Source: Candidatus Methanophagales archaeon
Lineage (GTDB): Archaea > Halobacteriota > Syntropharchaeia > Alkanophagales > Methanospirareceae
NCBI GenBank assembly: GCA_017883965.1
Contig: JAFNKG010000005.1
Span: 194-64,193 of the forward strand
DNA: 64,000 bases
Direction of reading: 5' to 3'
The position numbers and the translations under genes are program-made. How positions within the stretch are numbered: the first letter of the stretch is position 1; each line of letters starts with the position of its first letter. Under the pieces are notes generated by a model. It saw only the letters and a list, made by a program, of their open reading frames with translations, did not search any database and had not been told where the DNA came from. Below, piece by piece: positions 267-16,623 of this stretch.

Positions 267-387
267 TTCGTGGTATTTGATTAGCTGCCAAGTTTCAAGA
301 TGCAGGATGCAAGATGCAGGACTATGATTTATGACCAGATTCCTCAGCTTTGTATCTTGTATCATGTATCATGCAGCGGCATTACGC

Positions 388-1791
388 CTAACAACCTGTA
401 AATTTAGTTCCTGCACTCTTAACAAAATTCTCGGCAAACCCTATATAAGAAGCAGCATGTAAATGAACGAAAGAAGCGAGGCAGTTCTTTGAAATGATGC
501 CGTCCATTCCATCTTTTATACCTTCCCCTCTGTGTATCTTATAAGCAAAATCAACGTTTGCCATATCTTCAAGCAGTATTTTAGAATAATGGAATTCATG
601 CCCCTTAAACCTGCTGCCTTTTTTTCCTAATATACAATCCTTCCGAAACTCACCCTCCACATAATTTATGACTCTCTTTTCGCCGCTCATCTTCGCCAAT
701 CCTTTTAGCACACCACACATCTCAAATCTATTACCCTTATATTCGAGTTCTTCCATCAGATACGTCACCCCGCCACACTCCGCGTATATAACCCCGTATC
801 CATCGTAAAAGTTTTTGAGGTCATCGAGCATTTGCGTATTCGAGGAAAGTTCCTCTGCATAAATATCCGGAAAGCCACCACCGATATAAACGGCATCCAC
901 GCCTCCCGGAAGCTTTTTATCCCTTATAGGACTGAAATATACGACCTCCGCACCTTCTAAAGCGAGTAAATCCAACGTATCCTGATAGTAAAAATTGAAC
1001 GCCTCGTCAAAAGCCACTGCAATCCTGACTTTTGCCTCTTCACTTCTACCCGCATGAAAAATCCTTGCCTCCGGCGTTTTCAGAGCACTTGCAGACTTTG
1101 CAACGTCAAAAAGCACTTTTATATCAACATTCTCCTCTACTGACGTTTTTATCCCATCCAAAACGCTGTTAAAATCACTCCATCTATTTTTACATTCCGT
1201 GGCGGTAATCAAGCCAAGGTGACGCATAGAAATACCCAGCTCGCTCTTACGCGGAATCTTACCGATAACTTTTACACCACTATACTTCTCCACTGCCTTC
1301 TCCGCCTTCTCTCCATGTCTCTCGCTTCCAATATTGTTTAAAATAACGCCTGCTATCTGCACCTCAGGGTCAAAACTTTTATAGCCGTTAACCACCGCGG
1401 CAACACTTCTCGTTATGCTACTCGCATCAATCACAAGTATAACCGGGCAGTGCAGAATCTTTGCTATCTGTGCAGTGCTTCCTGCATCATCGAAATAGTT
1501 CAAACCTTCGTAAAGCCCACGCACTCCTTCTATTACTGCAATATCCGCACCCTCACAGCCCCTTATAAATACCTCCTTCACCGTATCTGCTGGCATCAAA
1601 AAACCGTCCAGATTCCTCGACGGTCTGCCAGACACTAATGTATGAAACCCGGGGTCTATATAGTCAAGTCCAACCTTGAAACCCTGAACCTCATGCCCCC
1701 TCTCTCGCAAAGCGCCCAATAGTCCGATACACACGGTAGTCTTACCTGCCGAGCTTCTGTCTCCTGCAATCAACACTCTTGGGATGGTCAT
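388..1791 (-). CDS. cbiA: Cobyrinate / Ni-sirohydrochlorin a,c-diamide synthase (CbiA/CfbB family)
   Basis: 467 aa. The N-terminal P-loop reads IAGDRSSAGKTTVCIGLLGAL. The C-terminal glutamine amidotransferase region contains GHEFHYS. Both are typical of CbiA/CobB. Confidence 0.8.
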   Translation of the reverse strand: MTIPRVLIAGDRSSAGKTTVCIGLLGALRERGHEVQGFKVGLDYIDPGFHTLVSGRPSRNLDGFLMPADTVKEVFIRGCEGADIAVIEGVRGLYEGLNYFDDAGSTAQIAKILHCPVILVIDASSITRSVAAVVNGYKSFDPEVQIAGVILNNIGSERHGEKAEKAVEKYSGVKVIGKIPRKSELGISMRHLGLITATECKNRWSDFNSVLDGIKTSVEENVDIKVLFDVAKSASALKTPEARIFHAGRSEEAKVRIAVAFDEAFNFYYQDTLDLLALEGAEVVYFSPIRDKKLPGGVDAVYIGGGFPDIYAEELSSNTQMLDDLKNFYDGYGVIYAECGGVTYLMEELEYKGNRFEMCGVLKGLAKMSGEKRVINYVEGEFRKDCILGKKGSRFKGHEFHYSKILLEDMANVDFAYKIHRGEGIKDGMDGIISKNCLASFVHLHAASYIGFAENFVKSAGTKFTGC

Positions 1792-2095
1792 AATAATATA
1801 TATCTTTTACATGAGACCTAAACTATATATAAAGCGATATAATCAAAATTTTAGTGTATCTTGGATTCCTGCTATAATGTTGGAATAAGATGAATAAGAT
1901 ATACAAACAAGATGGCATCAAACAAAAAATATGAGGAACTGCTCTGGGTAGAAAAATATGATGATTATGAGAAAGGTGAGAAGATACCAATTGAAAAGCC
2001 GAACCTGCCTTTCCAAGTTGTGGAAACTGTGGATTTCACGGAAAGAACAAAACTCGGAGGAATAACACGAATAAGGTGGTGGAGGTGAGGGGGAG

Positions 2096-2956
2096 ATGAA
2101 TGAGGGGAAAGATTTAGAAGAAATGAAAATTTTAGTCCAGGATAACGGCGAAGTGCCGAAAGAAGACATTGGAGATTTGGGAGAGCAATTTACGGAGGGC
2201 CTATTTAAAGGATTTATAAGGAGGCATGGTACACCAGATTATACCATCACTATGAATAGAAAGGACTTTATCTTAGAGACAACTGTAATAGATAAGATAT
2301 ACCGAAACCCATTAAAAATTTTTTATGATATATGTAAGGAGATAGGGAATAAGAAATTGGCAGCAGACTATGGAATATCAGTAGATCCATCTAACCTTCA
2401 CGAAAAAGATGAAGATACTTTCAAAGAAGAATTAAATGAGATTATAAATATCATCCAAGACAAGCGCCCAAAATATCAAAAATTTTCTATAAAGGGGGTA
2501 ATACGGGATTATACCGTTACATTTGAAAGAAGAAATATAGATTCAACTAAACTTTGTTTGGGTGAAATCTATAGACCAGCATCTAATTTAATCCATACTT
2601 TGATAAAAAAAGGGAAAAACAAACAAATAGAAAAAAGTGATATATTATTGTTGATAATCCTCAACGATTTAGTAGAAAAGAATTACGAGTTACTTGATGA
2701 ATTGTATAAACAAATGGAGGGAGGAACAGAAAATGAGTTTATCACTCAGTATCGTCTTGAAGAAACTGTATGGTTTAACACAAGACTAAAATGTGTTATA
2801 GCCGTTTATCCGGGGGATAAAAATGTGGTCGTCTGTCCTTCTTTATGTCATTATGAGGAGTTTAGTGCGGTTGAATACACAATCTTACGAAAAGTTATAG
2901 AAAATAAGGGATTTAAAGTGGATTCTGTTGTGCATAGCTCGACTATAAATGGATAA
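2096..2956 (+). CDS. Hypothetical protein of 286 aa with no recognisable domain, encoded in AT-rich DNA
   Basis: Long ORF with an upstream purine-rich RBS (ggaggtgaggggga). It lies directly upstream of the AbiE pair. Confidence 0.5.
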   Translation: MNEGKDLEEMKILVQDNGEVPKEDIGDLGEQFTEGLFKGFIRRHGTPDYTITMNRKDFILETTVIDKIYRNPLKIFYDICKEIGNKKLAADYGISVDPSNLHEKDEDTFKEELNEIINIIQDKRPKYQKFSIKGVIRDYTVTFERRNIDSTKLCLGEIYRPASNLIHTLIKKGKNKQIEKSDILLLIILNDLVEKNYELLDELYKQMEGGTENEFITQYRLEETVWFNTRLKCVIAVYPGDKNVVVCPSLCHYEEFSAVEYTILRKVIENKGFKVDSVVHSSTING

Positions 2957-3034
2957 AATAACAAAAAAGAGTGGAAAGTTTTTCTCAACCATATACACCA
3001 ACAATAACAGAATTGTTAAGGATGGTGCATAAAA

Positions 3035-3796
3035 ATGCGAATTACAATGCTTGAAGAACTGGCAAAAAAGGGAAATACTTTCACTATTGAGCATGTTCTA
3101 AGTACGACAAATATTCAAAAAGAGGTGTTATGGGTGATTCTTTCACGATTGGAGAAGAAGGGATGGATTGAGCGAATAGAAAAAGGAAAATATATGATCA
3201 TCCCGCTTGGTGCAGAGAAAGGAAAATATACGTTAAATGAATTTGTTATTGGTTCTTTGCTGGTAAATCCCTATTGTGTTGCTTACTGGAGTGCTCTCAA
3301 TTTTTATGGATTGACCGAGCAGATACCAAATACTGTTTTCATACAGACAACTTCAAGAAAGAAAAAACAGGCAATTGAGGTCTTTGATGTCCGATACAGG
3401 ATTGTTAGGGTAAAAGAAGAGAAGTTTTTTGGAATTAGAAAGGAGTGGATTGAAAACACGCAAATAAACATCACGGATAAAGAAAAAACAATAATAGATT
3501 GCCTTGATAAACCACGGTATTGCGGTGGCGTAATCGAAGTTGCCAAGGCACTAAAATATGGCAGCGAACTGGACAAGAAAAAACTCTTGGAATACGCCCA
3601 AAAGATTGGAAATTCGGGTGTTATTAGAAGATTTGGCTATCTCTGCGATTTCTTAGCCATAGACATTAGCATTCCTGAAATTAAAACGAGGAATTACCTT
3701 TTACTTGACCCCACGATGCCCCATAAAGGTTCAAAAAACGCAAAATGGAGATTGATCATAAATCTGGATGATAAAATACTTGGAGATTTGGAATGA
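3035..3796 (+). CDS. AbiEi-family type IV toxin-antitoxin antitoxin (winged-HTH transcriptional regulator)
   Basis: The N-terminus LEELAKKGNTFTIEHVL...LSRLEKKGWIERIEKGKYMI matches the AbiEi_4 wHTH signature with its G-x-Y motif. It overlaps the downstream AbiEii gene by 4 bp. Confidence 0.65.
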   Translation: MRITMLEELAKKGNTFTIEHVLSTTNIQKEVLWVILSRLEKKGWIERIEKGKYMIIPLGAEKGKYTLNEFVIGSLLVNPYCVAYWSALNFYGLTEQIPNTVFIQTTSRKKKQAIEVFDVRYRIVRVKEEKFFGIRKEWIENTQINITDKEKTIIDCLDKPRYCGGVIEVAKALKYGSELDKKKLLEYAQKIGNSGVIRRFGYLCDFLAIDISIPEIKTRNYLLLDPTMPHKGSKNAKWRLIINLDDKILGDLE

Positions 3797-4584
3797 TACC
3801 TTCAAGAGAGATAAGGGAGAAAGCGAGGGAGTGCGGTGTTCCAGAAACAACGGTTGAAAGAGACTATGCTCAAAATTGGCTGTTAAAATACCTCGCAACT
3901 AAAGATATGCTTCTAAAAGGTGGCACAGGGATAAGAAAAATCTATATTGCAAATTACAGATTCTCTGATGACCTGGACTTCACTTTGCTGGAAGATTTAG
4001 AGAGGAAAGATTTAGAAAACCAAATCAGTAACGCAGTAAAAGGAGCTAAAGAAGAAAGCGGAATAAATTTTGATGATAGTCTTCAGATTGATGAGAATGA
4101 AAATGGATACTTTGTTTCTGTCTATTTTAGGATTATGCGTAACGTTGGGAATCCATTAAAAATCAAACTGGATATTACAAAAACCAAAAAGGAAATAATA
4201 TTGCTTCCGATAGAAAAGAAGTCCATTACTCATCCTTATTCTGATGATTACAAAGCTGAAATAATCGCTTATTCTCTGGAGGAGATTGTCGCTGAAAAGG
4301 CACGTGCTTTATTTGAAAGAACGAGACCAAGGGACCTCTACGACGTAGGGTATCTATGGAATAGGGTCAATAAAGAGAAGGTGTTAGAGGTACTGGAAGA
4401 GAAATGCAGATTTAAGGATGTAACCATCAATATTTCATCCATCATAAATAGAAAAAGCGATTTTGATAATGCGTGGGAGGTTACACTTAGACATCAATTG
4501 AAACAACTCCCGGACTTTAATAAAACATTTGATACAGTTTTAGGAATAATTAAAGGATTTGAAGAAGAGAATGAAACCAACTGA
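3793..4584 (+). CDS. AbiEii/AbiGii-family nucleotidyltransferase toxin
   Basis: The family motif LKGGTGIRKIY...YRFSDDLDFTL is present (consensus GGTaL...RfSeDlDf). It is translationally coupled to AbiEi. Confidence 0.75.
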   Translation: MIPSREIREKARECGVPETTVERDYAQNWLLKYLATKDMLLKGGTGIRKIYIANYRFSDDLDFTLLEDLERKDLENQISNAVKGAKEESGINFDDSLQIDENENGYFVSVYFRIMRNVGNPLKIKLDITKTKKEIILLPIEKKSITHPYSDDYKAEIIAYSLEEIVAEKARALFERTRPRDLYDVGYLWNRVNKEKVLEVLEEKCRFKDVTINISSIINRKSDFDNAWEVTLRHQLKQLPDFNKTFDTVLGIIKGFEEENETN

Positions 4585-4733
4585 GCTTTTAAATCAGGAA
4601 CAAAGACGCCTAAGTGTAATGTCCATCAACATATTGCCGTTTTTGTTCTACCGCGCGGACAGATAGAAAGCCACTAATATTAAAAACGCATATTTATTGG
4701 ATAGTTTCGGCAACAAGTCTATAGACACTATAA

Positions 4734-7265
4734 TTAGATTTCCATCGTGGAGGCATGAGCACTGCAAGAAAAGCCCCTATTCTCTCCTGGTTTTCCTGCC
4801 CACTTCCAACTCTTACCAAAATCCGGAGAAGCTCTTAAGGTATATTCAAATTTACCTTCTTTTGGTGGCTCTATTCCGCCAGTATAAACATATTTATCAC
4901 CTTCCCGCTCAGTAAAATGCAGGTTTATGTGTATCCATTTTCCTTCTTCAGTTGCATTTGTCCAGATCTGAACAAGCACATCCTCTAGGGGCACACCTTC
5001 ACTCAAACTTACCATTGCAGTAACGGGTAAACTCTCTCCCAGGCCAATAGTTACTATTTCTTTAATAGGTCGGGTATCTTCAATCGAGATAACCCCTTCT
5101 CTTTTAAGCGCCTTATTCCACTGCCTTAAGTATTCTGCTGCAGTCAGTTCCGCCTCTAAGATGCGGCTGAGCCTTACAGAAGTCGCCTGATATTTTGCGA
5201 AATCATCAGGATTCATCTCTATCAGCCTTTTAAGTATGGCAAGATAGCTTTGAGATGTGGGATTAGCAGGGATTATGGTATTCCCTTCTCCGGGCACGGC
5301 AAAATTAACGATTACACCTTGAGGCTGTATAATTCCTTCTTTATACGGCGGACCGACTACAAGTCCTCCATTAGCAGAGACATCCGTCTCGGTATATCCC
5401 GCCGCCTCTGTTCCTCTGTCTGAATCCTGAACCTGAATATCGGTAGCGGCTAAAAGTGCAATTTGCTCTTCTATGGTGAAGTTATTGACCACTATTAACT
5501 TTCCCGGGTATCCTTTTGCTTCGAGCCTGTTACGAAACGCCATTAATCCCTTATAAAGCTCCTGGCTTCCTTTCCCGGGCTGAACACTGCCGAAAATGAT
5601 TACCTGTGCACCCATCTTGACTAACTCCTCAATATTTTCATCTGTAAATGCCCGCTTGCGCCCTGCCTTCTCATCTACCAAACGACCGGAATAAGAAATT
5701 ACTGGCTGATAAGGATTCAGTCCCAATTTGACCTTAGCAATTCTTTTCACTATTTCTATCTGTTGTGCTGTAGGAAATTCGACATCCACATCCTCAAAAG
5801 CATCCTTCAAAATTCCCCTGAACACCTTTGCTGAAAAGCTCCTGTCATCTCCGTTGGTAATGGAAATCAGCGGCACACCTTTATCATAATCCTTAACCTC
5901 TTCTACCTGGATCTCACTCACTCCATTGACTCCGTTAGCAGAACGAATCCCTCCACTGCTTATGTCTATAACTCCTTCTTTGGGAATAAACCACCATCTC
6001 ACTTCTTCCGGTAACTTCCACTGTGATAAAATCCTATTTCCTTCCTCATAGCCAAATATCCCACGATTACCGTAAGTATGAGTAGTAAACCAGAACAGGG
6101 CATCGTCTAATACCCCTTTATTATTACGCAAAAATCTGAATATATTTGGAAGTGCAGTCTGAGCATCATTGGTGTGGATAACAGGAGATTTATACTCTTT
6201 CCCATGTCTTTCAAACGCTCGTTCTTCCAGAATACCGATTAACTTTAAGGCTGCTCTTGAGAAAAATTCTGTAAAGTCTTCCCAACTGGTGTATTCTCCA
6301 CCATAAAAATATAACGTCTTCACATGGTAGGCTTCTTTATCCCTGACCAAGAATATAGGTATATCCTCCTCCCTGGTCTTCCCTGTGTAAACAACAACCT
6401 CGACAGGCTTACCCCCTACCTCTATTGCAAACCTTATATATTCTTTTATATCCTTTATTGACTTCTTCCATTTCACCTCTACCTCTTTGCCTTCTCTATT
6501 TAGCCCGTATGGAAAATAAGGCTCAATATGAATAACTTCTGCATCTCTGCCAATTAGTCTCTTTATTGCTTTACCGTGGTTGCGCATAACCCGCTTTAAC
6601 CCGCCTCCTTCTCTTCCCGGATGCCAGATTTCACAGGCAATCTGATAGATACGACGCCCAACAAGTAAAGGAGCGTTCTCTTTCAGCCAATTCTCAGAAA
6701 CTCTACCTGACATCAGCAAAATGGAGTTAATCAAAGGGTCCGCTTGCAGGAAAACACCGGCATCGTGAAGAATAGAAAGCAATCTTTCCTGCTCTTCTTT
6801 ATCTAAGAGAGTTACTGCTTTTAATACCGGCCAGCGTGCTTCAACGGGATGCAAAGGCTTTATACTGGTTGTCCATGAGAGTAGTTTAAGAAAATTAAGT
6901 AAGGTATTGTAATCGTCTAATCTTTCTCTTAAATTACGGATAACCCATTTATAATCGCAGGTTAAAATAGCCAGCTCCGTGAATCCTTTCTTCGGCTTAT
7001 AAAGTAATTCTCTTATCTGCTCTTCATTTAGCTTAAAACCATGTACAAGGAATTCATCTCTGGAAAGTGATATAATTCTTTTTTCATCAACAAGTGCCTC
7101 TCCTCCCAACTGCTCCTTCATATTAACCATTGTCTGACTGAGTAAATTCAAAAGATACCATTCTGGTGAAAGTGCCCCAAGATTTTCTACCCCTACCGCC
7201 AACTCTGCAATCTCTCCTGCTAACTTCGATGCTGCTTCATCCATTTGGTGAATTGTAGCTACCAT
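4734..7265 (-). CDS. Large GT-B fold glycosyltransferase, alpha-glucan phosphorylase/glycogen-synthase-like
   Basis: 843 aa. The N-terminal region contains REGGGLKRV, which resembles the glycogen synthase KxGGL motif. The C-terminal Rossmann half contains TEAAGYTETDVSANGGL, which resembles the GT35 EASGTSNMK...NGAL stretch but lacks its lysine. The size fits alpha-glucan phosphorylases. Confidence 0.4.
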   Translation of the reverse strand: MVATIHQMDEAASKLAGEIAELAVGVENLGALSPEWYLLNLLSQTMVNMKEQLGGEALVDEKRIISLSRDEFLVHGFKLNEEQIRELLYKPKKGFTELAILTCDYKWVIRNLRERLDDYNTLLNFLKLLSWTTSIKPLHPVEARWPVLKAVTLLDKEEQERLLSILHDAGVFLQADPLINSILLMSGRVSENWLKENAPLLVGRRIYQIACEIWHPGREGGGLKRVMRNHGKAIKRLIGRDAEVIHIEPYFPYGLNREGKEVEVKWKKSIKDIKEYIRFAIEVGGKPVEVVVYTGKTREEDIPIFLVRDKEAYHVKTLYFYGGEYTSWEDFTEFFSRAALKLIGILEERAFERHGKEYKSPVIHTNDAQTALPNIFRFLRNNKGVLDDALFWFTTHTYGNRGIFGYEEGNRILSQWKLPEEVRWWFIPKEGVIDISSGGIRSANGVNGVSEIQVEEVKDYDKGVPLISITNGDDRSFSAKVFRGILKDAFEDVDVEFPTAQQIEIVKRIAKVKLGLNPYQPVISYSGRLVDEKAGRKRAFTDENIEELVKMGAQVIIFGSVQPGKGSQELYKGLMAFRNRLEAKGYPGKLIVVNNFTIEEQIALLAATDIQVQDSDRGTEAAGYTETDVSANGGLVVGPPYKEGIIQPQGVIVNFAVPGEGNTIIPANPTSQSYLAILKRLIEMNPDDFAKYQATSVRLSRILEAELTAAEYLRQWNKALKREGVISIEDTRPIKEIVTIGLGESLPVTAMVSLSEGVPLEDVLVQIWTNATEEGKWIHINLHFTEREGDKYVYTGGIEPPKEGKFEYTLRASPDFGKSWKWAGKPGENRGFSCSAHASTMEI

Positions 7266-7266
7266 T

Positions 7267-7638
7267 TTACGCTTCTAAAATCCGCACTATCGCATTCTGC
7301 CATTTCCTGAGCTTGCTTAATATCGCTCTCGCTTCTATCATTGTAAATGGTATGCGGCGACTAAAAACAGTTTCTCGATAGATTTCCATCTCTGCTGCAA
7401 TACCCTCAAATCGTTCATCTCTTCTTAAAATCCACTCCATTATTTGTAATACCTCCCTCATCTTCTCCACCTCAGAAAGACCGGTTTCAATTAAAAATTC
7501 GATTGTATCTTTCAAATCGTCGGGTAGCGTGGGTTCCAATATACATACCATCTTTATCCCTTTCTTCCCCTTTATTATAACATCATCATCGTGAACCCAC
7601 ACAAACGGCAAAGACATGGGAGATATATTGTTCGTCAT
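7267..7638 (-). CDS. Hypothetical protein of 123 aa, co-directional with the glycosyltransferase
   Basis: The ORF ends 2 bp before the downstream gene, so it is probably co-transcribed. No recognisable motif. Confidence 0.35.
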   Translation of the reverse strand: MTNNISPMSLPFVWVHDDDVIIKGKKGIKMVCILEPTLPDDLKDTIEFLIETGLSEVEKMREVLQIMEWILRRDERFEGIAAEMEIYRETVFSRRIPFTMIEARAILSKLRKWQNAIVRILEA

Positions 7639-7793
7639 AACTGATACTTTGTTATTATAAGCTTTAAAATTATTTGTTTACCGCCGTGGTCACGGAGAGC
7701 GCTGAGATAAGATGAGATAAATGATTTTTCTGACTCTCTGTGTTCTCTGCGGGCTCAGCGGTAAATAAGTACAAAATATAATATCAATATCCT

Positions 7794-8432
7794 CTAAAAA
7801 CCTATTTCCTCCATCAACATCCTTATGTGCTCGCTTATTTCATGAAACCTGCGATGTCTTCTCGTAGGATAATAAGAAATCATAAACTTGATGTTTTTAT
7901 CCCCCATCTTCATTTCTAACACTTTTCCCGCTGCCTCGGATAATGTCCTTCCCACTTGCACTCGCATGCCCCATAGATTGCGTAAGATAAAAAAACCACG
8001 TAGCGCTGTCCTTCCTAATAAACAAATACCATCGGGCTTTATATACTCTATTTCTCGTTTAAGGTGGCACTCCGCACAGAGTTTTATAACTTTTCCATGA
8101 GGTGCTGCATTTTGCCCGTTTCTCGCCGAGGGGCATTTCGCTGTCGGCAGAAGATAAAAACCCGCAGCGATAAAATCGCTTACGGAGCTGATTTCATAGC
8201 CCAGGTCAGTTCGTAAGATCTCAAATAAACTATTTCGCAGTCTATCATTTGATTTTTTATTGTAGAAGTAGTAGCGACTGTTCAGAGGCGGTGCTTCGGA
8301 AATAAAAAGAAGCTTTACGTCCTGCGGCTCTGATACAGGAACCCGCTCATCAGGGCATATAACCTCACAATTGTCTTCTTCCTTGCACTTCTTACATTGT
8401 CTTATCTCCTCTTGTAGTTCGTTCCAGTTCAT
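7794..8432 (-). CDS. Uracil-DNA glycosylase superfamily protein (family 4-like, likely Fe-S)
   Basis: The N-terminal Cys cluster CKKCKEEDNCEVIC is present. LFISEAPP resembles motif A (GEaPG). KCPS matches the conserved kCrP. SYYPTRRH resembles motif B (HPS). Confidence 0.45.
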   Translation of the reverse strand: MNWNELQEEIRQCKKCKEEDNCEVICPDERVPVSEPQDVKLLFISEAPPLNSRYYFYNKKSNDRLRNSLFEILRTDLGYEISSVSDFIAAGFYLLPTAKCPSARNGQNAAPHGKVIKLCAECHLKREIEYIKPDGICLLGRTALRGFFILRNLWGMRVQVGRTLSEAAGKVLEMKMGDKNIKFMISYYPTRRHRRFHEISEHIRMLMEEIGF

Positions 8433-8474
8433 ATTGCCATCGTTAGGGCATGCTTTCTTATCTAATTATAACTT

Positions 8475-9257
8475 ATGTCATATACGCCAGATACGAAGGT
8501 GCAAGATAAAATGACATGGAAGGATGAGAAAGAAGAACTCGGAAAAGAGATAACTCGTTTATTATACGAAAAGGGGCTGATTAAAACGTGGTATCGTGAT
8601 AATCCAGACGGTTGGAAGCTCGTTTCTGGCTTATGGAGTCCTTTCTACATACAATTACGACCGCTTCCTTCTTATCCCGAACTGCTCCGAAAGGTGGGAC
8701 ATGCACTTGGAAAAATGCTCAAAGAGGAATGCAAAGCAGTGAATAAAGTAGTGGGCGTAGCAATGACTGGGATACCTATTGCATGTGCAATAACGTTACA
8801 AGAAGGCATACCCTCTTTATGGACGAGAAAAATAGATGTCCGGTCTTTAGACGAATTTAAAAGATACATTCAAAGTTATGGTGAGCATACGCTGGTAGAG
8901 GGCGAGTTTGAGACAGGCGACCGGATAGCGGTTATTGATGACTTAGCGACAAAATTCGATTCCAAACTCGTTGCTATTGAGCAAATAAAAACCGAAGCGA
9001 AGAAGAAGGGTTTAAAGATCGAATGTAAGGATGTGGTTGTTTTACTTGATCGCGAGCAAGGAGCGGCTGAAGTCGCATCTCAGCATGGCATTTCTTTTCA
9101 TTCGCTCATCCCTTTTAAATCGAAAGGAATTGAATGGCTGAAAACTTCGCTATCTGAGATTGAATATGAAGTCATCACTGAATATCTACGGGACGAGAAG
9201 AAATATCAGGATGCGGGGGTTCAAGAGGAGTTATATGAGGTGTGTTTAAAAAGATAA
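8475..9257 (+). CDS. Orotate-phosphoribosyltransferase-like type I PRTase
   Basis: A PRPP-binding loop is present (IAVIDDLATKFDS). The N-terminal region GWKLVSGLWSPFYIQLR resembles the OPRT start (f.lsSGr.SpyY.d.r). At 260 aa it is longer than canonical PyrE. Confidence 0.5.
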   Translation: MSYTPDTKVQDKMTWKDEKEELGKEITRLLYEKGLIKTWYRDNPDGWKLVSGLWSPFYIQLRPLPSYPELLRKVGHALGKMLKEECKAVNKVVGVAMTGIPIACAITLQEGIPSLWTRKIDVRSLDEFKRYIQSYGEHTLVEGEFETGDRIAVIDDLATKFDSKLVAIEQIKTEAKKKGLKIECKDVVVLLDREQGAAEVASQHGISFHSLIPFKSKGIEWLKTSLSEIEYEVITEYLRDEKKYQDAGVQEELYEVCLKR

Positions 9258-9859
9258 TAAACTATATAGTAAATAGGGAAGAAATCATGAAAAAAGGGGG
9301 TTATAAAAGTAAAAGTGATTTTTTGCAGAGGAAACAATTAAAATGGTCTAAAAGGAGCGAAATGCGGGAATTCTTTAAGAATAGATCGAAAATAAAAAGC
9401 GGTGAGATTATCGAAGAAGTAAGAGAAGAAGAAGACAAGGATATATGCAGCGGATTCAATGCATGTTGCAACGGCAAACAATACCAACGCTAACGTGATG
9501 CTGGTTGACGATAGGCATTTTGAGAAGTTTTCTGGGATTGAAGACATGAAGGTATTGAATGTCGCGGATGATGCTTTTCGTGACGTATTTGCAGAAATAA
9601 AGGACAGTTCAAAGAAATTTTGAAGGATGGACGAATATAAAATAAAGATACGGGATGTTGCAAAGGTGGAAAGTCTCCAAGAAGAAGGTTATCAAATCCC
9701 TGTATTGCAAACAAGGGAAGAATTGATAGATTTCTTAATACGAAACAAAGCGTATCCTTACTGTAGCAAAACAGGGAAAATCTTTTTAGGAGATTTAAAA
9801 AAGCGGAAGACGAGAATACGAATTTTGAGGGAATAATAAAGAATGGTGCCGTTAGAAAA

Positions 9860-10426
9860 TTGGGCTTGCAAACAGAAGAAGATTGCAGATTTCTTAGAGA
9901 AAAGATTAATTTCAGGAACTTAGACTCCGCTAGCTTCTCAGAGTTATGCTCGGTTGAAGGAATTGGTATGGCGAAAGCAGCCCAGATAAAAGCAGCTTTG
10001 GAAATAGGCAAACGGTTTTTACGAGAGAAAACCAAAATAGGAAGGAAAATTAAATCGGTTGAAGACGTAGTCAATTATTACAAGCCTTATCTAAGAGATT
10101 TGAAGAAAGAGGTGTTTAAAGTCATGTTGTTGGACGGAAGAAATAAAATAATTAATGATATAACAATTTCAGAAGGAAGTTTGACAGCAAGTGTAGTGCA
10201 TCCACGAGAAGTGATAAAAGAGGCGATAAAGGAATCTGCTGCTGCGCTAATCTTCGTGCATAATCATCCAAGTGGGGAATCACAGCCGAGTGAGGAGGAT
10301 ATTGAGATTACCAATCGGTTGGTTCAGGCTTGCGATTTGGTGGGGATATGGGTTTTGGACCATATTATTATAGGTGGTGATGGTTATATAAGTTTCGTGG
10401 ATGAAGGATTAATGAAGGCGGGATGA
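9860..10426 (+). CDS. radC: RadC-like JAB/MPN domain protein; the N-terminal region appears truncated or frameshifted
   Basis: Contains HNHPSGESQPSEEDIEIT (the JAMM HNHPSG signature), VHPREVIKEAI and VLDHIIIG..YISF. A helix-hairpin-helix motif GIGMAKAAQIKAALEIG is present. The ORF has a TTG start, and its likely N-terminus lies in another frame at 9627-9836. Confidence 0.75.
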   Translation: MGLQTEEDCRFLREKINFRNLDSASFSELCSVEGIGMAKAAQIKAALEIGKRFLREKTKIGRKIKSVEDVVNYYKPYLRDLKKEVFKVMLLDGRNKIINDITISEGSLTASVVHPREVIKEAIKESAAALIFVHNHPSGESQPSEEDIEITNRLVQACDLVGIWVLDHIIIGGDGYISFVDEGLMKAG

Positions 10427-10427
10427 A

Positions 10428-12269
10428 ATGAAAATAAAAAGGGTTAAAATAAAGAATTTTCGATCAATTGGAGAGGAAGGTGTAGATTTTAAACCGAAAG
10501 ATGGATTAAATATAATTATTGGCGAGAATAATGTAGGGAAATCAAATATTCTGAAAGCGTTGAAGCTGTTAGTGGATACGTTAGAAGAAAAACACAAAGA
10601 GATTAGTGAAATTGAATGGTACAATGGAATTACTGAAAGAGAAATTGAAATATCGGTTGAAGTTACTTTAAATGATGAGGAGATTGATAAGGTAATTCAA
10701 AATCTTGTAGGAACCACCCCAATAGATAATAAAACGAAGATAAAACGACTTAAAAAGGATTTTTGTGACAAAGTAGAAATTACCATGTGCCATAAGAAGA
10801 GAGATGACCTCTGGAACTCTATTTTCCTTAAATGGGGCTTTTTGTATTTAGATAGAAGTAATAAAGGTTTTTTAAATCCGGAAGCTAAAAGTTGGAGAAA
10901 TTATTACCCCATTAAATGGAGAGATATACTCTCAGAATATATTAGTGAGAATAATGAAAAATCTATTAATAATGTAATTGAAGAGAGACTTCAGGAAAGG
11001 GATAACGCTATAATCGAGTTTGACCAAAGACACCAAATTCATCCTGTTTTTATAACTATATTTAAAGAAAACTTTAAAGTATTTGAAGATATTCGACAAA
11101 AGCCGATAGGGAAAGGTAGCGATGCTTTAGAATCTTTCGATGGGTTATTAATAGCAGATGTTCTCTTCAATCTGTCTACGGGATATCACCCAAGAAGAAG
11201 GAAATACAAATCAATTCAAGAAAAATTTGGTGCACTGTTCCCTAATTTAGAGTTAGCAGCAGTACAGGACAAAACAAGCAGGAAACCAGACATCCACGTA
11301 ATTAAAAAAACTACAAAATATGAGGGGTCTCTTAATTCTATGGGTACTGGCATTATAGAGATTGTGATATTCTTAACTAACATCATGGCATCTAAAAATA
11401 AAGTGTTTGGAATAGAAGATCCAGAACTTCATCTTCATCCACATGCACAAAGATTGTTATTTGAAATATTACAAAAATATGGGGGCAACAAACAACTATT
11501 CGTAATAACTCATTCTCCCTTGTTTATGGATGTTAAACGAATAGATAGCCTAATTTTAATAAGAGAAGGAAGAGGTGGGACTACGGCAAAGCAGTTACCG
11601 GAAAATCATTTTAGCTCTGAAGAACAATCAAAACTCGAGAAAAATTTAGATGCTGAGAGTAAAGAAATATTTTTCTCCAGAGGAATTTTGCTCGTAGAAG
11701 GTCCTACTGAAAAGGGTGCGCTACCTGTTTTTGCAAAATCTCTCAATTCCGATTTTGATAAAAACGGATTTTCTGTTGTTTGGGTTGGCGGTAAAGATAA
11801 TCTTGAGATATTTATGAAATTGTTAAAAGGATTTGAGATTCCCTATATGGTGACATGTGACAAGGATGCGATTATGGAAATAAGCAAAGGTAAAATGGAG
11901 GGTATCAAAACAAGTTCATTATTCCGTCAACTCCATAATTTAAAAATACTAACTAATGAAGAAGTTGAAAAAATTAAACGATTTGCCAGTCAAATTGAAA
12001 ATAAAAAGAGCTATAAAGAGGATTTATTTGAGGGATTAAAGGAAATTGCTTTAAAATATAATTGCTTTGTTCTTTCCGGTACTTTTGAAGATATTTTAAA
12101 AAAGTCGGGTTATGGAGATTTAATTGAAGAAGCAAAAAATATTGTTGGAAATAGTAACCCAAGAATAGGGAGATATGTTGCTGAAAAAATTGTAGAACAA
12201 GGTGGAGAAATCCCGAAAGAGTTTAAAGAGATAATTTCTAAAGTAAACCAAATCACAGAGGTAGGATAA
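10428..12269 (+). CDS. OLD-family ATP-dependent endonuclease (AAA_15/ABC-type ATPase with a C-terminal TOPRIM)
   Basis: The N-terminus MKIKRVKIKNFRSIGEEGVDF...IIGENNVGKSNILKAL is the Walker A region of the OLD family. The Walker B/D-loop region is IEDPELHLHPHAQRLL. The TOPRIM region reads ILLVEGPTEKGALPVF...VWVGGKDNL...PYMVTCDKD. The start codon lies 1 nt after the radC stop, and the gene is very AT-rich. Confidence 0.85.
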   Translation: MKIKRVKIKNFRSIGEEGVDFKPKDGLNIIIGENNVGKSNILKALKLLVDTLEEKHKEISEIEWYNGITEREIEISVEVTLNDEEIDKVIQNLVGTTPIDNKTKIKRLKKDFCDKVEITMCHKKRDDLWNSIFLKWGFLYLDRSNKGFLNPEAKSWRNYYPIKWRDILSEYISENNEKSINNVIEERLQERDNAIIEFDQRHQIHPVFITIFKENFKVFEDIRQKPIGKGSDALESFDGLLIADVLFNLSTGYHPRRRKYKSIQEKFGALFPNLELAAVQDKTSRKPDIHVIKKTTKYEGSLNSMGTGIIEIVIFLTNIMASKNKVFGIEDPELHLHPHAQRLLFEILQKYGGNKQLFVITHSPLFMDVKRIDSLILIREGRGGTTAKQLPENHFSSEEQSKLEKNLDAESKEIFFSRGILLVEGPTEKGALPVFAKSLNSDFDKNGFSVVWVGGKDNLEIFMKLLKGFEIPYMVTCDKDAIMEISKGKMEGIKTSSLFRQLHNLKILTNEEVEKIKRFASQIENKKSYKEDLFEGLKEIALKYNCFVLSGTFEDILKKSGYGDLIEEAKNIVGNSNPRIGRYVAEKIVEQGGEIPKEFKEIISKVNQITEVG

Positions 12270-12436
12270 AATGCCAAGAGAATACAAACCAACTGAGGAA
12301 GCCACTAAAGAAGGATATGTCCAAGACATAACTGGGGAGTGGCTCCGTGCAACACCGGAGGTTATGGATGCTAAAAAAGTTTTTGCTGATAGATTGGTCA
12401 ATGAATTTGGGTACTCACTAGGACAGATACAAACAA

Positions 12437-12823
12437 TTGAAGGTGTTTAGAGAAGGAGAAATAAGGATTGGGGGTAAAATGAAAAAGGAGAAAAAGAAAA
12501 TTGTTGTGAAAGCAAGAAAAACAATTCGCCTTATCGCTGATAAATTAAAGGAAAGCTACAACCCGGAGAAAATAATCTTATTTGGCTCTTATGCATGGGG
12601 CTTGCCCGATGAAGACAGCGACATTGACATTTTGGTTATTAAGGATACAGAAGAAACACCACATCGCAGAAACGTGAATGCAAGGAAACTTGTTTCATCG
12701 CTTAGAAGGGGCTACGGACTTGATATTTTGGTTATTACACCAGAAGAATTGAAATCAAGGCTTAATATTGGAGATAAATTTCTGGAAGAAATCATTTCAA
12801 GAGGAGAAAGATTATATGGCTAA
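12437..12823 (+). CDS. Minimal nucleotidyltransferase (MNT) antitoxin-type protein
   Basis: The motif ILFGSYAWGLPDEDSDIDILVI matches the polymerase-beta-type GS...D.D motif. Confidence 0.75.
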   Translation: MKVFREGEIRIGGKMKKEKKKIVVKARKTIRLIADKLKESYNPEKIILFGSYAWGLPDEDSDIDILVIKDTEETPHRRNVNARKLVSSLRRGYGLDILVITPEELKSRLNIGDKFLEEIISRGERLYG

Positions 12824-13214
12824 AGAATCTCGCTACTGGAAAGACTGGCTTGATAAAGCGGAAAAGGATTTGCAAAGGGTAGAGAAACGTCTCGAGAATG
12901 GAGATACCGAAGATGCTGCGTTTCACTTACAGCAAGCTGTGGAGAAGTATCTGAAAGGATATCTCTTATCAAAGGGCTGGAAATTTAAACCTATCCATGA
13001 TTTGGAAAGGCTTTTAGATGACGCTGCCCATTTTGACAGCGATTTTGAGAGATTTAGGGAAATTTGCCAAGAGATTACTTCTTATTATACGGAAGAACGT
13101 TATCCTTTCTTCGTTTCCGAGCCAAGCAAGGAAGAAGTTGCGGAAGCTTTGGAGATGGCTAAAGAATTGGTTAAAAGGATTTTTGGGAAGATGAGAAGAG
13201 AGCCTGAAGAATAA
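12816..13214 (+). CDS. HEPN-domain protein, partner of the MNT
   Basis: It overlaps the MNT stop codon. The helical protein contains ...AAFHLQQAVEKYLKGYL... and ERYPFF, the HEPN R-x4-6-H/ERYP region. The start was moved to the internal ATG (MAKESRYW). Confidence 0.6.
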   Translation: MAKESRYWKDWLDKAEKDLQRVEKRLENGDTEDAAFHLQQAVEKYLKGYLLSKGWKFKPIHDLERLLDDAAHFDSDFERFREICQEITSYYTEERYPFFVSEPSKEEVAEALEMAKELVKRIFGKMRREPEE

Positions 13215-13275
13215 ATAGATAAAAGGGGGAGTTTTAAAGACAAGTGGCTACTTATATAGATCATAGCAAAATGAA

Positions 13276-15249
13276 ATGACAAATCTTGACGAATTGGAAG
13301 ATTTGTTGCGCAAAGACGAAAAAGAAAAGGCATACGAACTGATAAAAGAAGATAGAGGCATCACTGCTGAAATTTTAATGGATGAGGGAATCCTTTTTGG
13401 AATTAGCGGAGAATATAGCATTTCGATTTCTTATTTCGAGTTTGGGGAAAAGATTGCCGAAGATGACAAAAAAAAAGAAGTAGCACGGGAAAACGTAGCA
13501 GTAGCTTACAACAAACGAGGGTGTACTTATTATGAATTAACCCAGCATGAAAAAGCGATTGACGACTACAACAAGGCAATTGAATTTAATCCAAATTATG
13601 TCGAGGCTTACTATAACCGTGGAAAAGCTTATCATGAATTGAAACAGCATGAAGAAGCGATTGCCGATTACAACAAGGTAATGGAACTCAATCCATATCT
13701 TGCGGAGGCTTACAACAACCGTGGAGTTGCTTATTGTGAATTAGAACAATATGAAGAAGGGGTTGAAGATTACAACAAGGCAATTGAATTTGATCCAAAT
13801 CATGTCGAGGCTTACTATAACCGTGGAAAATCTTATCATAAATTGAAACAGCATGAAAAGGCGATTGAAGATTTTAACAAGGCGATAGAACTCAATCCAG
13901 AATACGCTGATGCTTATATCAGTCGTGGGCTTGTTTATCGTGAATTATATCAGTATGAAAAGGCAATTGAAGATTTTAACAAGGCAATAGAACTTAATCC
14001 AAAATATACTGGGGCTTACTACAACCGTGGAATTGCTTATCATGAATTAAAGCAGCATGCGAAAGCGATTGAAGATTACAATAAGGCAATAGAACTTAAT
14101 CCAAAAGATGCTGAGGCTTATGCAAATCGTGGAGGGATTCACCTTCAAACAAATAACGATTTAGACACTGCAATTGGCGATTTTAAGACTGCAAGAGACC
14201 TTTTTGAAGGGAAAGATAAAGAGAGGATGCTTGGATTTGTAGAGTGGGCAAAGGCAAGGAAGGAGATGAACATGAAGAATTGGGGTGATTTTAGAGAACG
14301 AATGAACGAAGCAAAAGAAATCTTTGAGAGAATCAACGACCCTTTATCTCTTTCATTTGCCGCTTCTATAAAATTCTCTTATCTGGATGAGGAATTAGAT
14401 AACGCTTTAAACATCCCCGATCCAATAAAAGCATTGGAAGAGATTGAAACGGCATTAAAAAATCTTCCTGAGGTTGAAGGATTGATTGACCCTGAGGCAA
14501 CGATATTTGGTGCAAGAGTTTCATCTTTTGCAATCCTAAGCGAGTTTATTAGCTCCATGAGAAGTATTGACGAGAACACGGATTTAAGAATGGTTAAAGC
14601 CAAACTTGCTGAATTGCTTAAATATTCAAAAAAAGCGGAAGAAGCGTTTGAAGCAGTCGATTTCATCAAAGGGAAGACGGCAATTGTGGATATTCAAGAC
14701 GTTATAAGCTCAGCTAAACAAGAGATAGGAAAAATAGAATGGGCTGCGAACAAAAAGCAAAAGGCTTTGGAGATACTTAGGGGATATTGGTCAAGACTTA
14801 GCTCTGCTATAAAAGTGATGAATGGTATTTCAACTCGCGAAATTGAAAACATTACCTTGGGAAGGGAAATAAGAGAGATGAAAAGTGAATTGCGCGATGG
14901 ATTTACTGAAACAAAAGAGATGATCTCAGAAGGGTTCGAGAAAAGTAGCGAAGAGCATAAAGAGATTTTAGAGAAAATCTACGCGACCGAAAATATTCTG
15001 TTGCAAAAGGATGTAGCGAATGCACGGTATAGAATAGAATTTCCACCATCCCCTTCTCCAACAAAAATTATTGTTGATATCCCAATGGGGAAACTAACAG
15101 AGGAGCAAATAGAAGAAAAAGCAGAAGAGATAGCTTATAAATTTAAATATCTGAAGAGCAAGGTAAAGGAGGAGTTTTTGGAGGCAATTAAGCGTATACC
15201 GGAAATAGGTGATAAGCTTCTGAAGAGGTTGAAGAAGACAAGAGGTTAA
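13276..15249 (+). CDS. TPR-repeat protein: about 8 tandem TPR units followed by a C-terminal domain of about 300 aa with unknown function
   Basis: Repeated 34-aa units AYYNRGKAYHELKQHEEAIADYNKAIELNP are present, and the repeats are also very similar at DNA level. Confidence 0.8.
   Translation: MTNLDELEDLLRKDEKEKAYELIKEDRGITAEILMDEGILFGISGEYSISISYFEFGEKIAEDDKKKEVARENVAVAYNKRGCTYYELTQHEKAIDDYNKAIEFNPNYVEAYYNRGKAYHELKQHEEAIADYNKVMELNPYLAEAYNNRGVAYCELEQYEEGVEDYNKAIEFDPNHVEAYYNRGKSYHKLKQHEKAIEDFNKAIELNPEYADAYISRGLVYRELYQYEKAIEDFNKAIELNPKYTGAYYNRGIAYHELKQHAKAIEDYNKAIELNPKDAEAYANRGGIHLQTNNDLDTAIGDFKTARDLFEGKDKERMLGFVEWAKARKEMNMKNWGDFRERMNEAKEIFERINDPLSLSFAASIKFSYLDEELDNALNIPDPIKALEEIETALKNLPEVEGLIDPEATIFGARVSSFAILSEFISSMRSIDENTDLRMVKAKLAELLKYSKKAEEAFEAVDFIKGKTAIVDIQDVISSAKQEIGKIEWAANKKQKALEILRGYWSRLSSAIKVMNGISTREIENITLGREIREMKSELRDGFTETKEMISEGFEKSSEEHKEILEKIYATENILLQKDVANARYRIEFPPSPSPTKIIVDIPMGKLTEEQIEEKAEEIAYKFKYLKSKVKEEFLEAIKRIPEIGDKLLKRLKKTRG
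13480..14140 (+). repeat. Tandem TPR-encoding DNA repeats of about 102 bp
   Basis: Near-identical strings such as gaggcttactataaccgtggaaaa and caacaaggcaattgaatt recur. Confidence 0.6.
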
Positions 15250-15363
15250 ATAAGGCAGAGTTTGCCTTTTTGGAGATTTTGCAAAACTGCTCTCACTTCG
15301 ATAATAAAAAACTTTGTGAAAAGCACTCTCTTTCTAAGAAGAAACCTGTGTTGAGAAATGATT

Positions 15364-15942
15364 TTATTCAAACTCCTTCAACCCATAACAAAACCTCTTC
15401 AACTTCTCTTTACCCCTTTCGAGCATGAAATTCGCCTTCGATAAGATAAAATCCAGATGCGCTTCACTGCAAAACATCATCCCGTCTTTACCCAGAGGAA
15501 CGTCCATCCTTTCCGTGCTCATTATCTCCACCACCACTCTTTCATTATCCCTTGAAATCGCCTTTATGCTACTGTATTTAAAGCCGGATTCAATCGCTAT
15601 CCTTAACAATCCCTTTGCCTTCTCTAAACCCCTACACGCCACGTGCAATATCGGCGATTGTGATAACAACCATATCTCGCCTTTTTCTGAAGCCTTTAAC
15701 GCCTCTAACACTTCCTCCTTCCTTACTGAACGATGCCACTTGCCAATAAATGTCGCTTCTCGCTTCGCACCTATCTCAGGTAAACGAATCAAGGATATTC
15801 TGCCTGAGCAACTGCTCGTTGTAAAGAATCCTTCGAGGCTGTTCAGCTTCTCTATTATCTCCTCCACTTCTTCGTCTGCTCCCCTTATCCGCAGTTTCTC
15901 AAGCGCCCTCTTCTTCTGCTCTTTAAATTCCGACATCAACAA
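15364..15942 (-). CDS. taw3: tRNA wybutosine-synthesis protein 3 (Taw3/TYW3 family methyltransferase)
   Basis: 192 aa. The TYW3 signature TSSCSGRISLI is present. Confidence 0.6.
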   Translation of the reverse strand: MLMSEFKEQKKRALEKLRIRGADEEVEEIIEKLNSLEGFFTTSSCSGRISLIRLPEIGAKREATFIGKWHRSVRKEEVLEALKASEKGEIWLLSQSPILHVACRGLEKAKGLLRIAIESGFKYSSIKAISRDNERVVVEIMSTERMDVPLGKDGMMFCSEAHLDFILSKANFMLERGKEKLKRFCYGLKEFE

Positions 15943-15967
15943 CAGAAAAATTCCAAAAGTTATTTAT

Positions 15968-15990
15968 AATATCCCAACAACCAACATACT
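15968..15990 (+). promoter_or_regulatory. Candidate archaeal BRE/TATA box upstream of the antiporter operon
   Basis: The sequence aaagttatttataatatcc lies about 30-45 nt upstream of the mrpF start. Confidence 0.3.
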
Positions 15991-16018
15991 ATAAATTAAT
16001 CAAAGAAGCAAGCGAAAA

Positions 16019-16312
16019 ATGATAGAGCTGGATGTATTCCTAAAAGACTACGTATTCCTCGCTATCGGGCTGTTAATCGCACTCACGATATTGTTGTGTT
16101 TATACAGAGCAGTGCTTGGACCAGGCGTGTTTAATCGCGTGACAGCGGTGAATGTAATAGGGACAAAAACAATCGTTCTCTTAGTTATTATAGGCTATAT
16201 ATTCGAAAGACCTCTGTTCTTTGACATCTCGCTTCTCTATGCAATGCTAAATTTCATTGCCACTTTAGTTTTCGCAAAATATTTAGAGAGGGGTGAGGTA
16301 TGCTTGAGATAA
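16019..16312 (+). CDS. mrpF: Mrp/Mnh antiporter subunit F-like protein (MbhB-like)
   Basis: 97 aa with 3 transmembrane helices. RAVLGPGVFNRVTAVNVIGT matches MnhF (LrGPt..DRvvAld). Confidence 0.7.
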   Translation: MIELDVFLKDYVFLAIGLLIALTILLCLYRAVLGPGVFNRVTAVNVIGTKTIVLLVIIGYIFERPLFFDISLLYAMLNFIATLVFAKYLERGEVCLR

Positions 16313-16623
16313 TCGTGATATTACTCCTAGCTGTCGGAATTTTCTTTATGTTCACCGGCGCAATTGGATTATTACGATTGCCTGACTTTTATACAAGACT
16401 GCATGCAACAGGGAAGTGCGACACGCTTGGAGAAGTCCTTATAATCTTTGGTTTGTTGTTATACCATTTATTCCATTACCCGGAAACACCTCTCGTACCT
16501 GTGAAGCTTCTATTTTTAATAATATTTATTTTTCTCGCCAATCCAACAGCGACACATGCGATAATGAAAGCGGCTTATAATACAGGTGTGAAGCCCTGGA
16601 AGGTGGGGGAAGAGAGAAGATGA
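16300..16623 (+). CDS. mrpG: Mrp/Mnh antiporter subunit G-like protein (MbhC-like)
   Basis: GAIGLLRLPDFYTRLHATGKCDTLG matches the MnhG signature (GalGllRfPDvytRlHAatK). Confidence 0.75.
   Translation: MLEIIVILLLAVGIFFMFTGAIGLLRLPDFYTRLHATGKCDTLGEVLIIFGLLLYHLFHYPETPLVPVKLLFLIIFIFLANPTATHAIMKAAYNTGVKPWKVGEERR

Follow-up and report, generated by a model that had tools for sequence, protein, structure and literature searches.

Anaerobic methanotrophic archaea of the ANME-1 lineage have not been cultured, although a large share of marine methane oxidation is under their control, and all knowledge of how they interact with viruses comes from genomes. Among ANME-1 strains, structural variants are concentrated in genes for transporters, defence and methane metabolism (Zhou et al., Nat Commun 2026, PMC13385816). 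The defence-related variants include adenine methyltransferases, hsdRSM and toxin-antitoxin operons, the last showing insertions and partial deletions; AbiE, OLD, HEPN and RadC go unmentioned in the main text of that study (PMC13385816). The locus analyzed here is a cluster of such genes at positions 2096 to 15249 of a 64-kb window (the whole stretch of DNA that was analyzed, along which all positions are counted) from an ANME-1 (Methanophagales) genome. It resembles the published variable hotspots in its strain-level insertions and partial deletions, rich in restriction-modification and toxin-antitoxin genes, and is an instance of that phenomenon, with AbiE, OLD and HEPN representing known kinds of system.

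The locus most probably comprises two hotspots of variable content, independent of each other and set apart by a conserved block of housekeeping genes (4.5 kb), with cargo of low guanine-plus-cytosine (GC) content that consists of defence and toxin-antitoxin genes and is being eroded by deletions. The layout is as follows.

388-1791, minus strand: CbiA-family amidase, the left flank
1848-4733: left variable segment (hotspot 1, about 1850-4730), between CbiA and the glycosyltransferase block, 35.3% GC
4734-9257: conserved interspersed block, outside the islands, 41.6% GC
9258-15340: right variable segment (hotspot 2), between the phosphoribosyltransferase-like gene and TYW3, 36.0% GC
15364-15942, minus strand: TYW3, the right flank
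from 16019: Mrp/Mnh antiporter cluster, right flank beyond TYW3

An earlier inspection of the letters (the sequence-only reading) had described a cluster of AbiEi/AbiEii, RadC, OLD, MNT, HEPN and tetratricopeptide repeat (TPR) genes with interspersed core genes and suggested that it was acquired horizontally. The listed open reading frames (ORFs) are all present at their coordinates, and profile searches (Pfam, NCBIfam and PADLOC) confirmed each domain label, which bears out the clustering. Base composition also sets the two segments apart, at 35-36% GC against 44.0% in the left flank (1-1847) and 41.9% in the right (15341-64000). The median GC content at third codon positions (GC3) is 0.34 in the 8 island genes, 0.41 in the 4 interspersed genes and 0.43 in the 39 other genes of the window, and the island genes are lower than the other genes in both GC3 (p=2e-4) and GC (p=2e-5; one-sided Mann-Whitney). 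The proposed A/T-rich codon usage held for GC, GC3 and AAA, which accounts for 0.71 of the lysine codons in the island and 0.56 elsewhere, but failed for ATA, whose share of isoleucine codons is lower in the island (0.37 vs 0.52), and for AAT, whose share of asparagine codons is about equal to that of other genes.

Four genes make up the middle block.

4734-7265, minus strand: starch-synthase-like glycosyltransferase of 843 residues (GT843)
7267-7638, minus strand: gene for a 123-residue protein (h123)
7794-8432, minus strand: protein of the UDG superfamily
8475-9257, plus strand: phosphoribosyltransferase-like protein (PRT)

The window was compared with loci (L001, L002, L006, L109 and others) on metagenome contigs of relatives, some of them short; absence or replacement of segments and deletion junctions were read directly from these alignments. 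Orthologues of GT843 are 81-82% identical in two Methanophagales/ANME-1 assemblies, L001 (Hel0.bin107) and L002 (LH_S14), and in both the order of the middle block is kept at 67-92% protein identity, in agreement with the proposal that core genes are interspersed here. Gene order on the source contigs is that of the window. Read in window orientation, L001 runs GT843, h123, UDG-like, PRT-like, a TauE-family membrane gene, TYW3 and Mrp. Since the TauE-family gene, encoded on the opposite strand, stands alone in the ∼870 bp between PRT and TYW3, the 6.1-kb RadC-to-TPR segment of the window (9258-15340) is absent there. The L002 contig stops just beyond the PRT gene. On the left, the similarity of L001 and L002 to the window ends at the 3′ end of GT843, near 4745, and beyond GT843 the two contigs hold a common gene set that has no counterpart anywhere in the 64-kb window. 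From the other side, in L010 (CbiA 90% identical), nucleotide similarity ends at window position 1847. CbiA synteny was used to delimit the left island, and among the 80 metagenome loci compared the CbiA gene alone matched. What lies upstream of CbiA varies from one examined relative to the next (a HEPN-like gene, argininosuccinate lyase, tetrapyrrole methylase). Gene order across the flagged stretch is thus not conserved, both AT-rich segments being absent or replaced in relatives, and together with the departure of GC and GC3 from the flanks this supports the horizontal acquisition proposed earlier. As a separate observation, L010, which has the closest CbiA relative, carries HEPN-type genes (7954-9846, with a weak RiboL-PSP-HEPN match and a PF05168 HEPN) directly upstream of CbiA, where the window has the left-segment genes described next; the CbiA-proximal site may itself be a hotspot.

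The left segment contains four features.

1912-2088, plus strand: remnant of 58 codons of a type III-like Mod DNA methyltransferase (N6_N4_Mtase)
2096-2956, plus strand: protein of 286 residues (the "ORFan"), of a rare PD-(D/E)xK nuclease-like family
3035-3796, plus strand: AbiEi antitoxin/transcriptional regulator (Pfam AbiEi_4 and AbiEi_1; PADLOC AbiEi, 2e-87)
3793-4584, plus strand: AbiEii (DUF1814) nucleotidyltransferase toxin (PF08843, 1e-31; PADLOC, 4e-69)

The Mod remnant is recognizable from window 1921-2034, which corresponds to residues 8-45 of a 397-residue methyltransferase in L092 at 87% protein identity. In L092-L094 this methyltransferase opens a co-directional array with overlapping gene ends, in the order Mod (397 residues), MNT, HepT, a 186-residue gene, ORFan (81% identical to that of the window), AbiEi, AbiEii, ResIII (463 residues) and a 407-residue gene; toxin-antitoxin modules appear to interrupt a type III-like restriction-modification system there. 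Within L092 3568-11040, Res is split into the 463- and 407-residue ORFs, and MNT-HepT lies between the methyltransferase and the 186-residue ORF. The ORFan-AbiEi-AbiEii genes form a 2.5-kb block of 88.7% nucleotide identity (window 2108-4614, L092 5958-8459), which in L092 stands in an unrelated genomic context, beside a glutamate synthase gene. Relative to L092, the window is without most of Mod, MNT, HepT, the 186-residue gene and Res, and judged from this alignment hotspot 1 is apparently a reduced copy of a larger restriction-modification island seen in another ANME-1 lineage.

The functional unit left in hotspot 1 is most likely AbiE, predicted to act as a type IV toxin-antitoxin/abortive-infection pair. 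All sequence-level hallmarks of such a system are present: the two genes are bicistronic with the antitoxin gene first and overlap by 4 bp (ATGA), as in known AbiE pairs; AbiEi combines an N-terminal winged helix with a C-terminal antitoxin domain (PF13338, 1.5e-6, and PF09407, 9e-5, both past cut-offs, with the PADLOC match spanning residues 3-249); and AbiEii has the DUF1814 motifs, GG in LKGGTG and DxD as DLD in SDDLDF. The window pair differs from known AbiE systems in being archaeal, in having a PD-(D/E)xK-like gene upstream and in lying inside a decayed type III-like restriction-modification island. If it works as the characterized AbiE and MenT systems do, AbiEi would bind DNA through its winged-helix domain, repress its own operon and neutralize the AbiEii nucleotidyltransferase, and loss of AbiEi control during infection would lead to growth arrest.

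The right segment holds nine features.

9287-9493: ORF of 68 codons that precedes the possible PIN remnant
9430-9621, plus strand: possible remnant, C-terminal, of a PIN-domain gene (Pfam PIN at E 0.015, a weak match to positions 86-118 of the 120 in the profile)
9627-9836, plus strand: 5′ part of RadC, frameshifted, aligning with the start of the 342-residue RadC of L006
9860-10426, plus strand: 3′ part of RadC (HhH and JAB/MPN; PF04002, 2e-46)
10428-12269, plus strand: predicted stand-alone OLD-family ATPase/Toprim nuclease (AAA_15, 2e-27; OLD-like TOPRIM, 1e-19)
12271-12450, plus strand: remnant of 59 codons of a fused restriction-modification subunit (HSDR_N_2 and N6_Mtase)
12479-12823, plus strand: MNT (minimal nucleotidyltransferase, NTP_transf_2; PF01909, 1e-11), with a likely ATG at 12479 in an ORF open from TTG 12437
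12816-13214, plus strand: HEPN-domain protein (PF05168, 1e-30), from ATG 12816 in ORF 12768-13214
13276-15249, plus strand: TPR protein of six 34-residue repeats and a C-terminal region of ∼360 residues (Pfam TPR families)

Three independent contigs cover this site and show what else it can hold. L006 1-784 and window 9125-9909, which takes in the end of the PRT gene, are 94% identical in nucleotides, and L006 therefore represents the same locus; the stretch with the possible PIN remnant is kept there, also at 94%. Its order is RadC (342 residues), OLD, a 624-residue HSDR_N_2 plus N6_Mtase protein, a 166-residue gene, HsdS, PIN, a 140-residue gene and MNT, and the OLD proteins of L006 and L007 are 82% identical to that of the window. 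Window 12250-12436 has its counterpart in L006 3641-3827, where the 624-residue gene starts, and the window is without ∼5 kb of L006 that includes the rest of this gene, the 166-residue gene, HsdS, PIN and the 140-residue gene. L109 (GCA_049642765.1) begins with RadC, HsdM (514 residues), PIN, genes of 106 and 178 residues and HsdS, and continues with HEPN (282 residues), HsdR (1000 residues), a YgjP-like gene, MNT, a HEPN stub, TPR, TYW3 and Mrp. The 3′ end of its RadC is 91% nucleotide-identical to the window, HsdM follows ∼16 nt later, and there is no OLD at the locus. Comparison of the window, L006 and L109 indicates a constant frame on either side, RadC to the left and MNT-(HEPN)-TPR to the right, with exchangeable cargo in between: OLD and the 59-codon stub in the window, OLD and restriction-modification genes in L006, and a type I restriction-modification system in L109.

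The left frame is itself damaged in the window. Alignment with L006 shows that one base is missing from a run of T near 9783, which shifts the frame, and that a 204-bp in-frame deletion (68 codons; window 9907 joins L006 781 and 986) removes the UPF0758_N core; this domain scores 3e-25 in the L006 protein and a marginal 0.0015, below cut-off, in the window. The RadC/UPF0758 family is recognized by UPF0758_N, HhH and JAB in one ORF, a combination that this RadC gene does not keep intact. The window gene shares with the family the HhH and a JAB domain with an intact JAMM motif (HNHPSGESQPSEED), and its NCBIfam scores are past the cut-off, but the gene is disrupted; the full-length L006 RadC has an additional N-terminal extension of ∼100 residues relative to the family. 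In L006, a 348-bp insertion (1494-1842) separates RadC from OLD and alters the RadC C terminus. With inverted repeats both terminal (ACCTGTTTAGC ... GCTGTTCAGGT) and internal (GTCCCCCCTACA / TGTAGGGGGGAC) and TAATG duplicated at the two ends, the insertion looks like a miniature inverted-repeat transposable element (MITE); its internal repeat was searched for in the window and not found. The 58- and 59-codon stubs and the damaged RadC are probably nonfunctional. As read from the alignments, the four remnants (type III-like Mod, possible PIN, RadC and the fused restriction-modification subunit) mark both islands as deletion derivatives of larger ones that contained restriction-modification genes and are found intact in relatives.

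Decay has also affected the MNT-HEPN pair, in relatives rather than in the window. MNT is kept in the window, L006 (∼88% nucleotide identity) and L109 (90% protein identity), whereas the HEPN gene is intact in the window only: L006 is without window 12823-13113 (at ∼9160) and L109 without 12855-13205 (at ∼9932). These differing end points indicate that HEPN was lost in independent events. The window pair resembles MNT-HEPN modules such as Shewanella MntA/HepT in being adjacent and overlapping (12816-12823) and in its motifs, GSx10DxD in MNT (GSYAWGLPDEDSDID) and RLLDDAAH, which fits Rx4-6H, in HEPN. It differs from the experimentally studied DUF86/HepT type (PF01934) in that its HEPN is of the PF05168 type, which we take to be toxic as well. 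The pair is presumed to be a toxin-antitoxin module in which MNT would silence the HEPN RNase by modifying it; the loss of HEPN with retention of MNT in two relatives is an indirect hint at such neutralization. Two further MNT/HEPN regions lie near the right end of the window. One is a pair on the plus strand (MNT 60035-60463, HEPN 60448-60849), and the other, on the minus strand at 61754-63818, has a HEPN gene (61754-62164) adjoining a 558-residue ORF with NosD/beta-helix repeats and a C-terminal nucleotidyltransferase motif. Both have GC3 values of 0.28-0.36.

The TPR gene had been counted among the island genes, an assignment that the relatives do not favour. Its family, made up of paralogues and orthologues, is large and expanded in Methanophagaceae (dozens of full-length matches at 56-76% identity, with variable repeat number), and in L109 the orthologue adjoins TYW3-Mrp. 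The gene has a tandem periodicity of 102 nt, and the C-terminal region of the protein, conserved in the family, has no Pfam domain. In our reading the gene flanks the hotspot stably and is not evident defence cargo. Assemblies tend to break at or beside TPR genes, as at the end of L006 and the start of L002.

Taken across strains, the pattern indicates rapid gain, replacement and decay, because cargo differs at one site, microdeletions have accumulated, HEPN was lost independently and the same 2.5-kb block occurs in different contexts. An alternative to which we assign a small chance is that the low GC reflects amino acid composition or relaxed selection on native genes, the region being ancestral and lost in relatives. 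The island proteins are indeed rich in lysine, isoleucine, asparagine and glutamate, the many remnants imply that deletion is frequent, and further low-GC3 genes lie elsewhere in the window. However, GC3 and the synonymous choice of AAA over AAG shift as well, the same sites hold non-homologous cargo in relatives (TauE in L001, type I restriction-modification in L109), and the ORFan-AbiE block recurs at near 89% nucleotide identity in an unrelated context, all of which favour exchange at two hotspots.

The closest described counterparts of the OLD protein are the Class 1 OLD enzymes, which are defined as stand-alone genes in variable neighbourhoods (PMC12796447). AAA_15 (residues 1-365) and OLD-like TOPRIM (415-480) lie in one polypeptide, with the Walker A motif GENNVGKS, EDPELHLHP, the Toprim glutamate and DKD all present. 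Its best solved relative is the Class 1 OLD of Thermus scotoductus (6p74, 3e-23), ahead of GajA (3e-15), although good alignment to that enzyme is limited to about the C-terminal half and the top PADLOC profile is the Class 2 GajA (PDLC00070, 3e-61). It shares the fused ATPase/Toprim architecture, the catalytic motifs and the stand-alone gene with the Class 1 OLDs of phage P2 (Old), 6p74 and Vibrio cholerae. Relatives with 38-50% identity occur as lone genes surrounded by housekeeping genes (L102 5001-6815; L100 5001-6968; L008 6001-7839); the pairs of neighbours that enclose them are Na/H exchanger and OMP decarboxylase, glycosyltransferase and AlaX-like gene, and gatA and gatB. A relative at 40% identity has only unannotated neighbours and no RadC, and one at 36% lies in a methyltransferase/PDDEXK island, so that five relatives occupy five contexts with no recurrent partner. 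Single-gene relatives in differing contexts fit the published Class 1 definition, and from the preference for 6p74 over GajA and the gene context we classify the window protein as a putative stand-alone, Class-1-like OLD. Between gatA (amidase) and gatB, the start and stop codons of the OLD homologue overlap with its neighbours, an odd place for a defence nuclease. Bacterial Class 1 enzymes are reported to nick or degrade invading DNA in an ATP-dependent manner (PMC12392090), and the window OLD is presumed by analogy to do the same.

Other assignments were considered for OLD and set aside. A Gabija system (Class 2 OLD) was suggested by the GajA profile match, but no GajB/UvrD-like helicase ORF lies beside OLD in the window, L006 or L007. 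No reverse transcriptase, noncoding RNA or split AriA/AriB was found by OLD, whose domains are fused, unlike those of Class 3 (retron) and Class 4 (PARIS) systems; an Rfam scan of window 1-17000 at E <= 0.1 gave no match, and a retron-type system with a noncoding RNA was likewise rejected. Because the genes abut in L006, we also considered that OLD replaces HsdR in an OLD-HsdM-HsdS system. This was discounted: the 624-residue protein of L006 has its own nuclease-like HSDR_N_2 domain and with HsdS looks like a fused, self-sufficient restriction-modification enzyme (presumably BcgI-like type IIB), L109 has classical HsdM/S/R at the same site without OLD, and M and S genes adjoin none of the other OLD relatives.

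The sequence-only reading had paired RadC with OLD, and such a pair could form a dedicated two-gene defence system in which the RadC JAB/MPN domain regulates or assists the OLD nuclease. The arrangement invites this idea, since RadC stops at 10424-10426 and OLD starts at 10428, with a single nucleotide in between, both genes lie inside the AT-rich segment and the pair is present in L006 too. The idea is nonetheless improbable, slightly more so than a native origin of the islands. In L109 the same RadC is followed by HsdM with no OLD, RadC is never a neighbour of OLD relatives at 36-50% identity, the window RadC is frameshifted and 68 codons short, a MITE-like element lies between the two genes in L006, and PADLOC has no matching system containing RadC. 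A functional RadC-OLD pair was therefore not borne out, and the reading of RadC as frame and OLD as exchangeable cargo is preferred.

That a single integrated mobile element, whether provirus or integrative element, makes up the whole 2.1-15.2 kb and carries defence cargo is very improbable: defence genes often travel on mobile elements and low GC is common to both segments, but the 4.5-kb middle block stands in the same order in relatives without the islands, homologues of the two segments lie on separate contigs, and no integrase-like ORF (window ORFs, Pfam), tRNA gene, att-like or flanking direct repeat or viral hallmark gene was found. Pattern-based scans of IMG/VR, which are insensitive and give weak evidence, returned no relatives of ORFan or AbiEii, and the sole OLD match covered 74 residues at 33% identity. 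With an integrative element or provirus rejected on these grounds, the earlier proposal of a mosaic of insertions stands, the segments having separate homologues in separate contexts.

Several points weigh against the two-hotspot reading. Gain here cannot be separated from loss in relatives, as the comparison draws on few, fragmentary metagenome contigs, none of which spans CbiA to GT843; the directions of the gain and loss events are thus inferred. Core genes of the window and L109 have 78%-89% nucleotide identity, overlapping that of the island flanks (∼90%), so recombination is not distinguishable from shared descent. L012 shows rearrangements too, which makes the "core" status of the 4.5-kb middle block relative. 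In that contig, from a more distant relative (CbiA 77% identical), CbiA (1063-2433) is preceded at a distance of ∼600 bp by a PRT-like fragment (185-466; residues 13-106 at 87% identity), and the ORFan-AbiE-GT843-h123-UDG stretch is therefore missing or rearranged. Finally, the archaeal OLD Cran1 has a cell-cycle, non-defence role, other archaeal OLDs being uncharacterized (PMC12796447). A Cran1-like housekeeping role is unlikely for the window OLD, as neither L001 nor L109 carries the gene at this locus.

The 286-residue protein at 2096-2956 had been labeled an ORFan, a label that does not hold. We identified 19 homologues, all from metagenome sources, the sole one with a source name being from Methanophagaceae, and a profile search of 1.84 billion representative proteins placed the family in 33 clusters. 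It has no match in Pfam, NCBIfam, PADLOC or PHROGs. The alignment of the family served to build an AlphaFold model (pLDDT 77, pTM 0.72), and Foldseek against PDB gave nothing significant. In the alignment, E30, P47-D48 and E61-x-K63 fall on the expected helix and strands of a PD-(D/E)xK fold. The clade of the window protein has E61-T-T63, with the catalytic lysine replaced by threonine, and in this clade a lysine at position 67 seems to covary with the absence of K63, the catalytic lysine being either relocated (K67) or lost. With moderate confidence in the modelled fold, we regard the protein as PD-(D/E)xK-like, of uncertain catalytic competence. Three contexts are represented: two flanking contexts in which it lies upstream of AbiEi/AbiEii in a decayed type III-like island, and a third, in L096-L099, in which a 61%-identical homologue stands beside a ThsB-like TIR gene without AbiE. 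The last indicates that the gene is associated with defence islands and not tied to AbiE. Tentatively, the protein may represent a previously undescribed, rare defence-island family with a nuclease-like N-terminal domain and a C-terminal domain without known family. Its role could be that of an effector acting against viruses on its own, or it could assist AbiE as an accessory nuclease or sensor. It is the only component of the locus without a described family.

Elsewhere in the window, two isolated genes have very low GC3 and may be further small insertions: a family-2 glycosyltransferase (48200-48895, plus strand; GC3 0.27) and a 147-residue protein without Pfam match (26954-27397, minus strand; GC3 0.28). 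In addition, Proton_antipo_M (Mrp/Mnh-type) paralogues occur at two sites, 19107-22200 and 35555-37063, where the ORF at 35555-37063 resembles that at 19107-20639.

Current concepts are left unchanged by this locus. It corrects a misannotation, as "RadC-OLD" is no system and a GajA-profile match without GajB is no Gabija, and it flags one rare nuclease-like family in the "ORFan". For ANME-1 biology, it offers a base-resolved example of hotspot turnover in which the same two sites hold different defence cargo in different strains, and this turnover includes the decay of restriction-modification genes to stubs of 58-59 codons, the twofold loss of HEPN and the recurrence of the ORFan-AbiE block in unrelated contexts.

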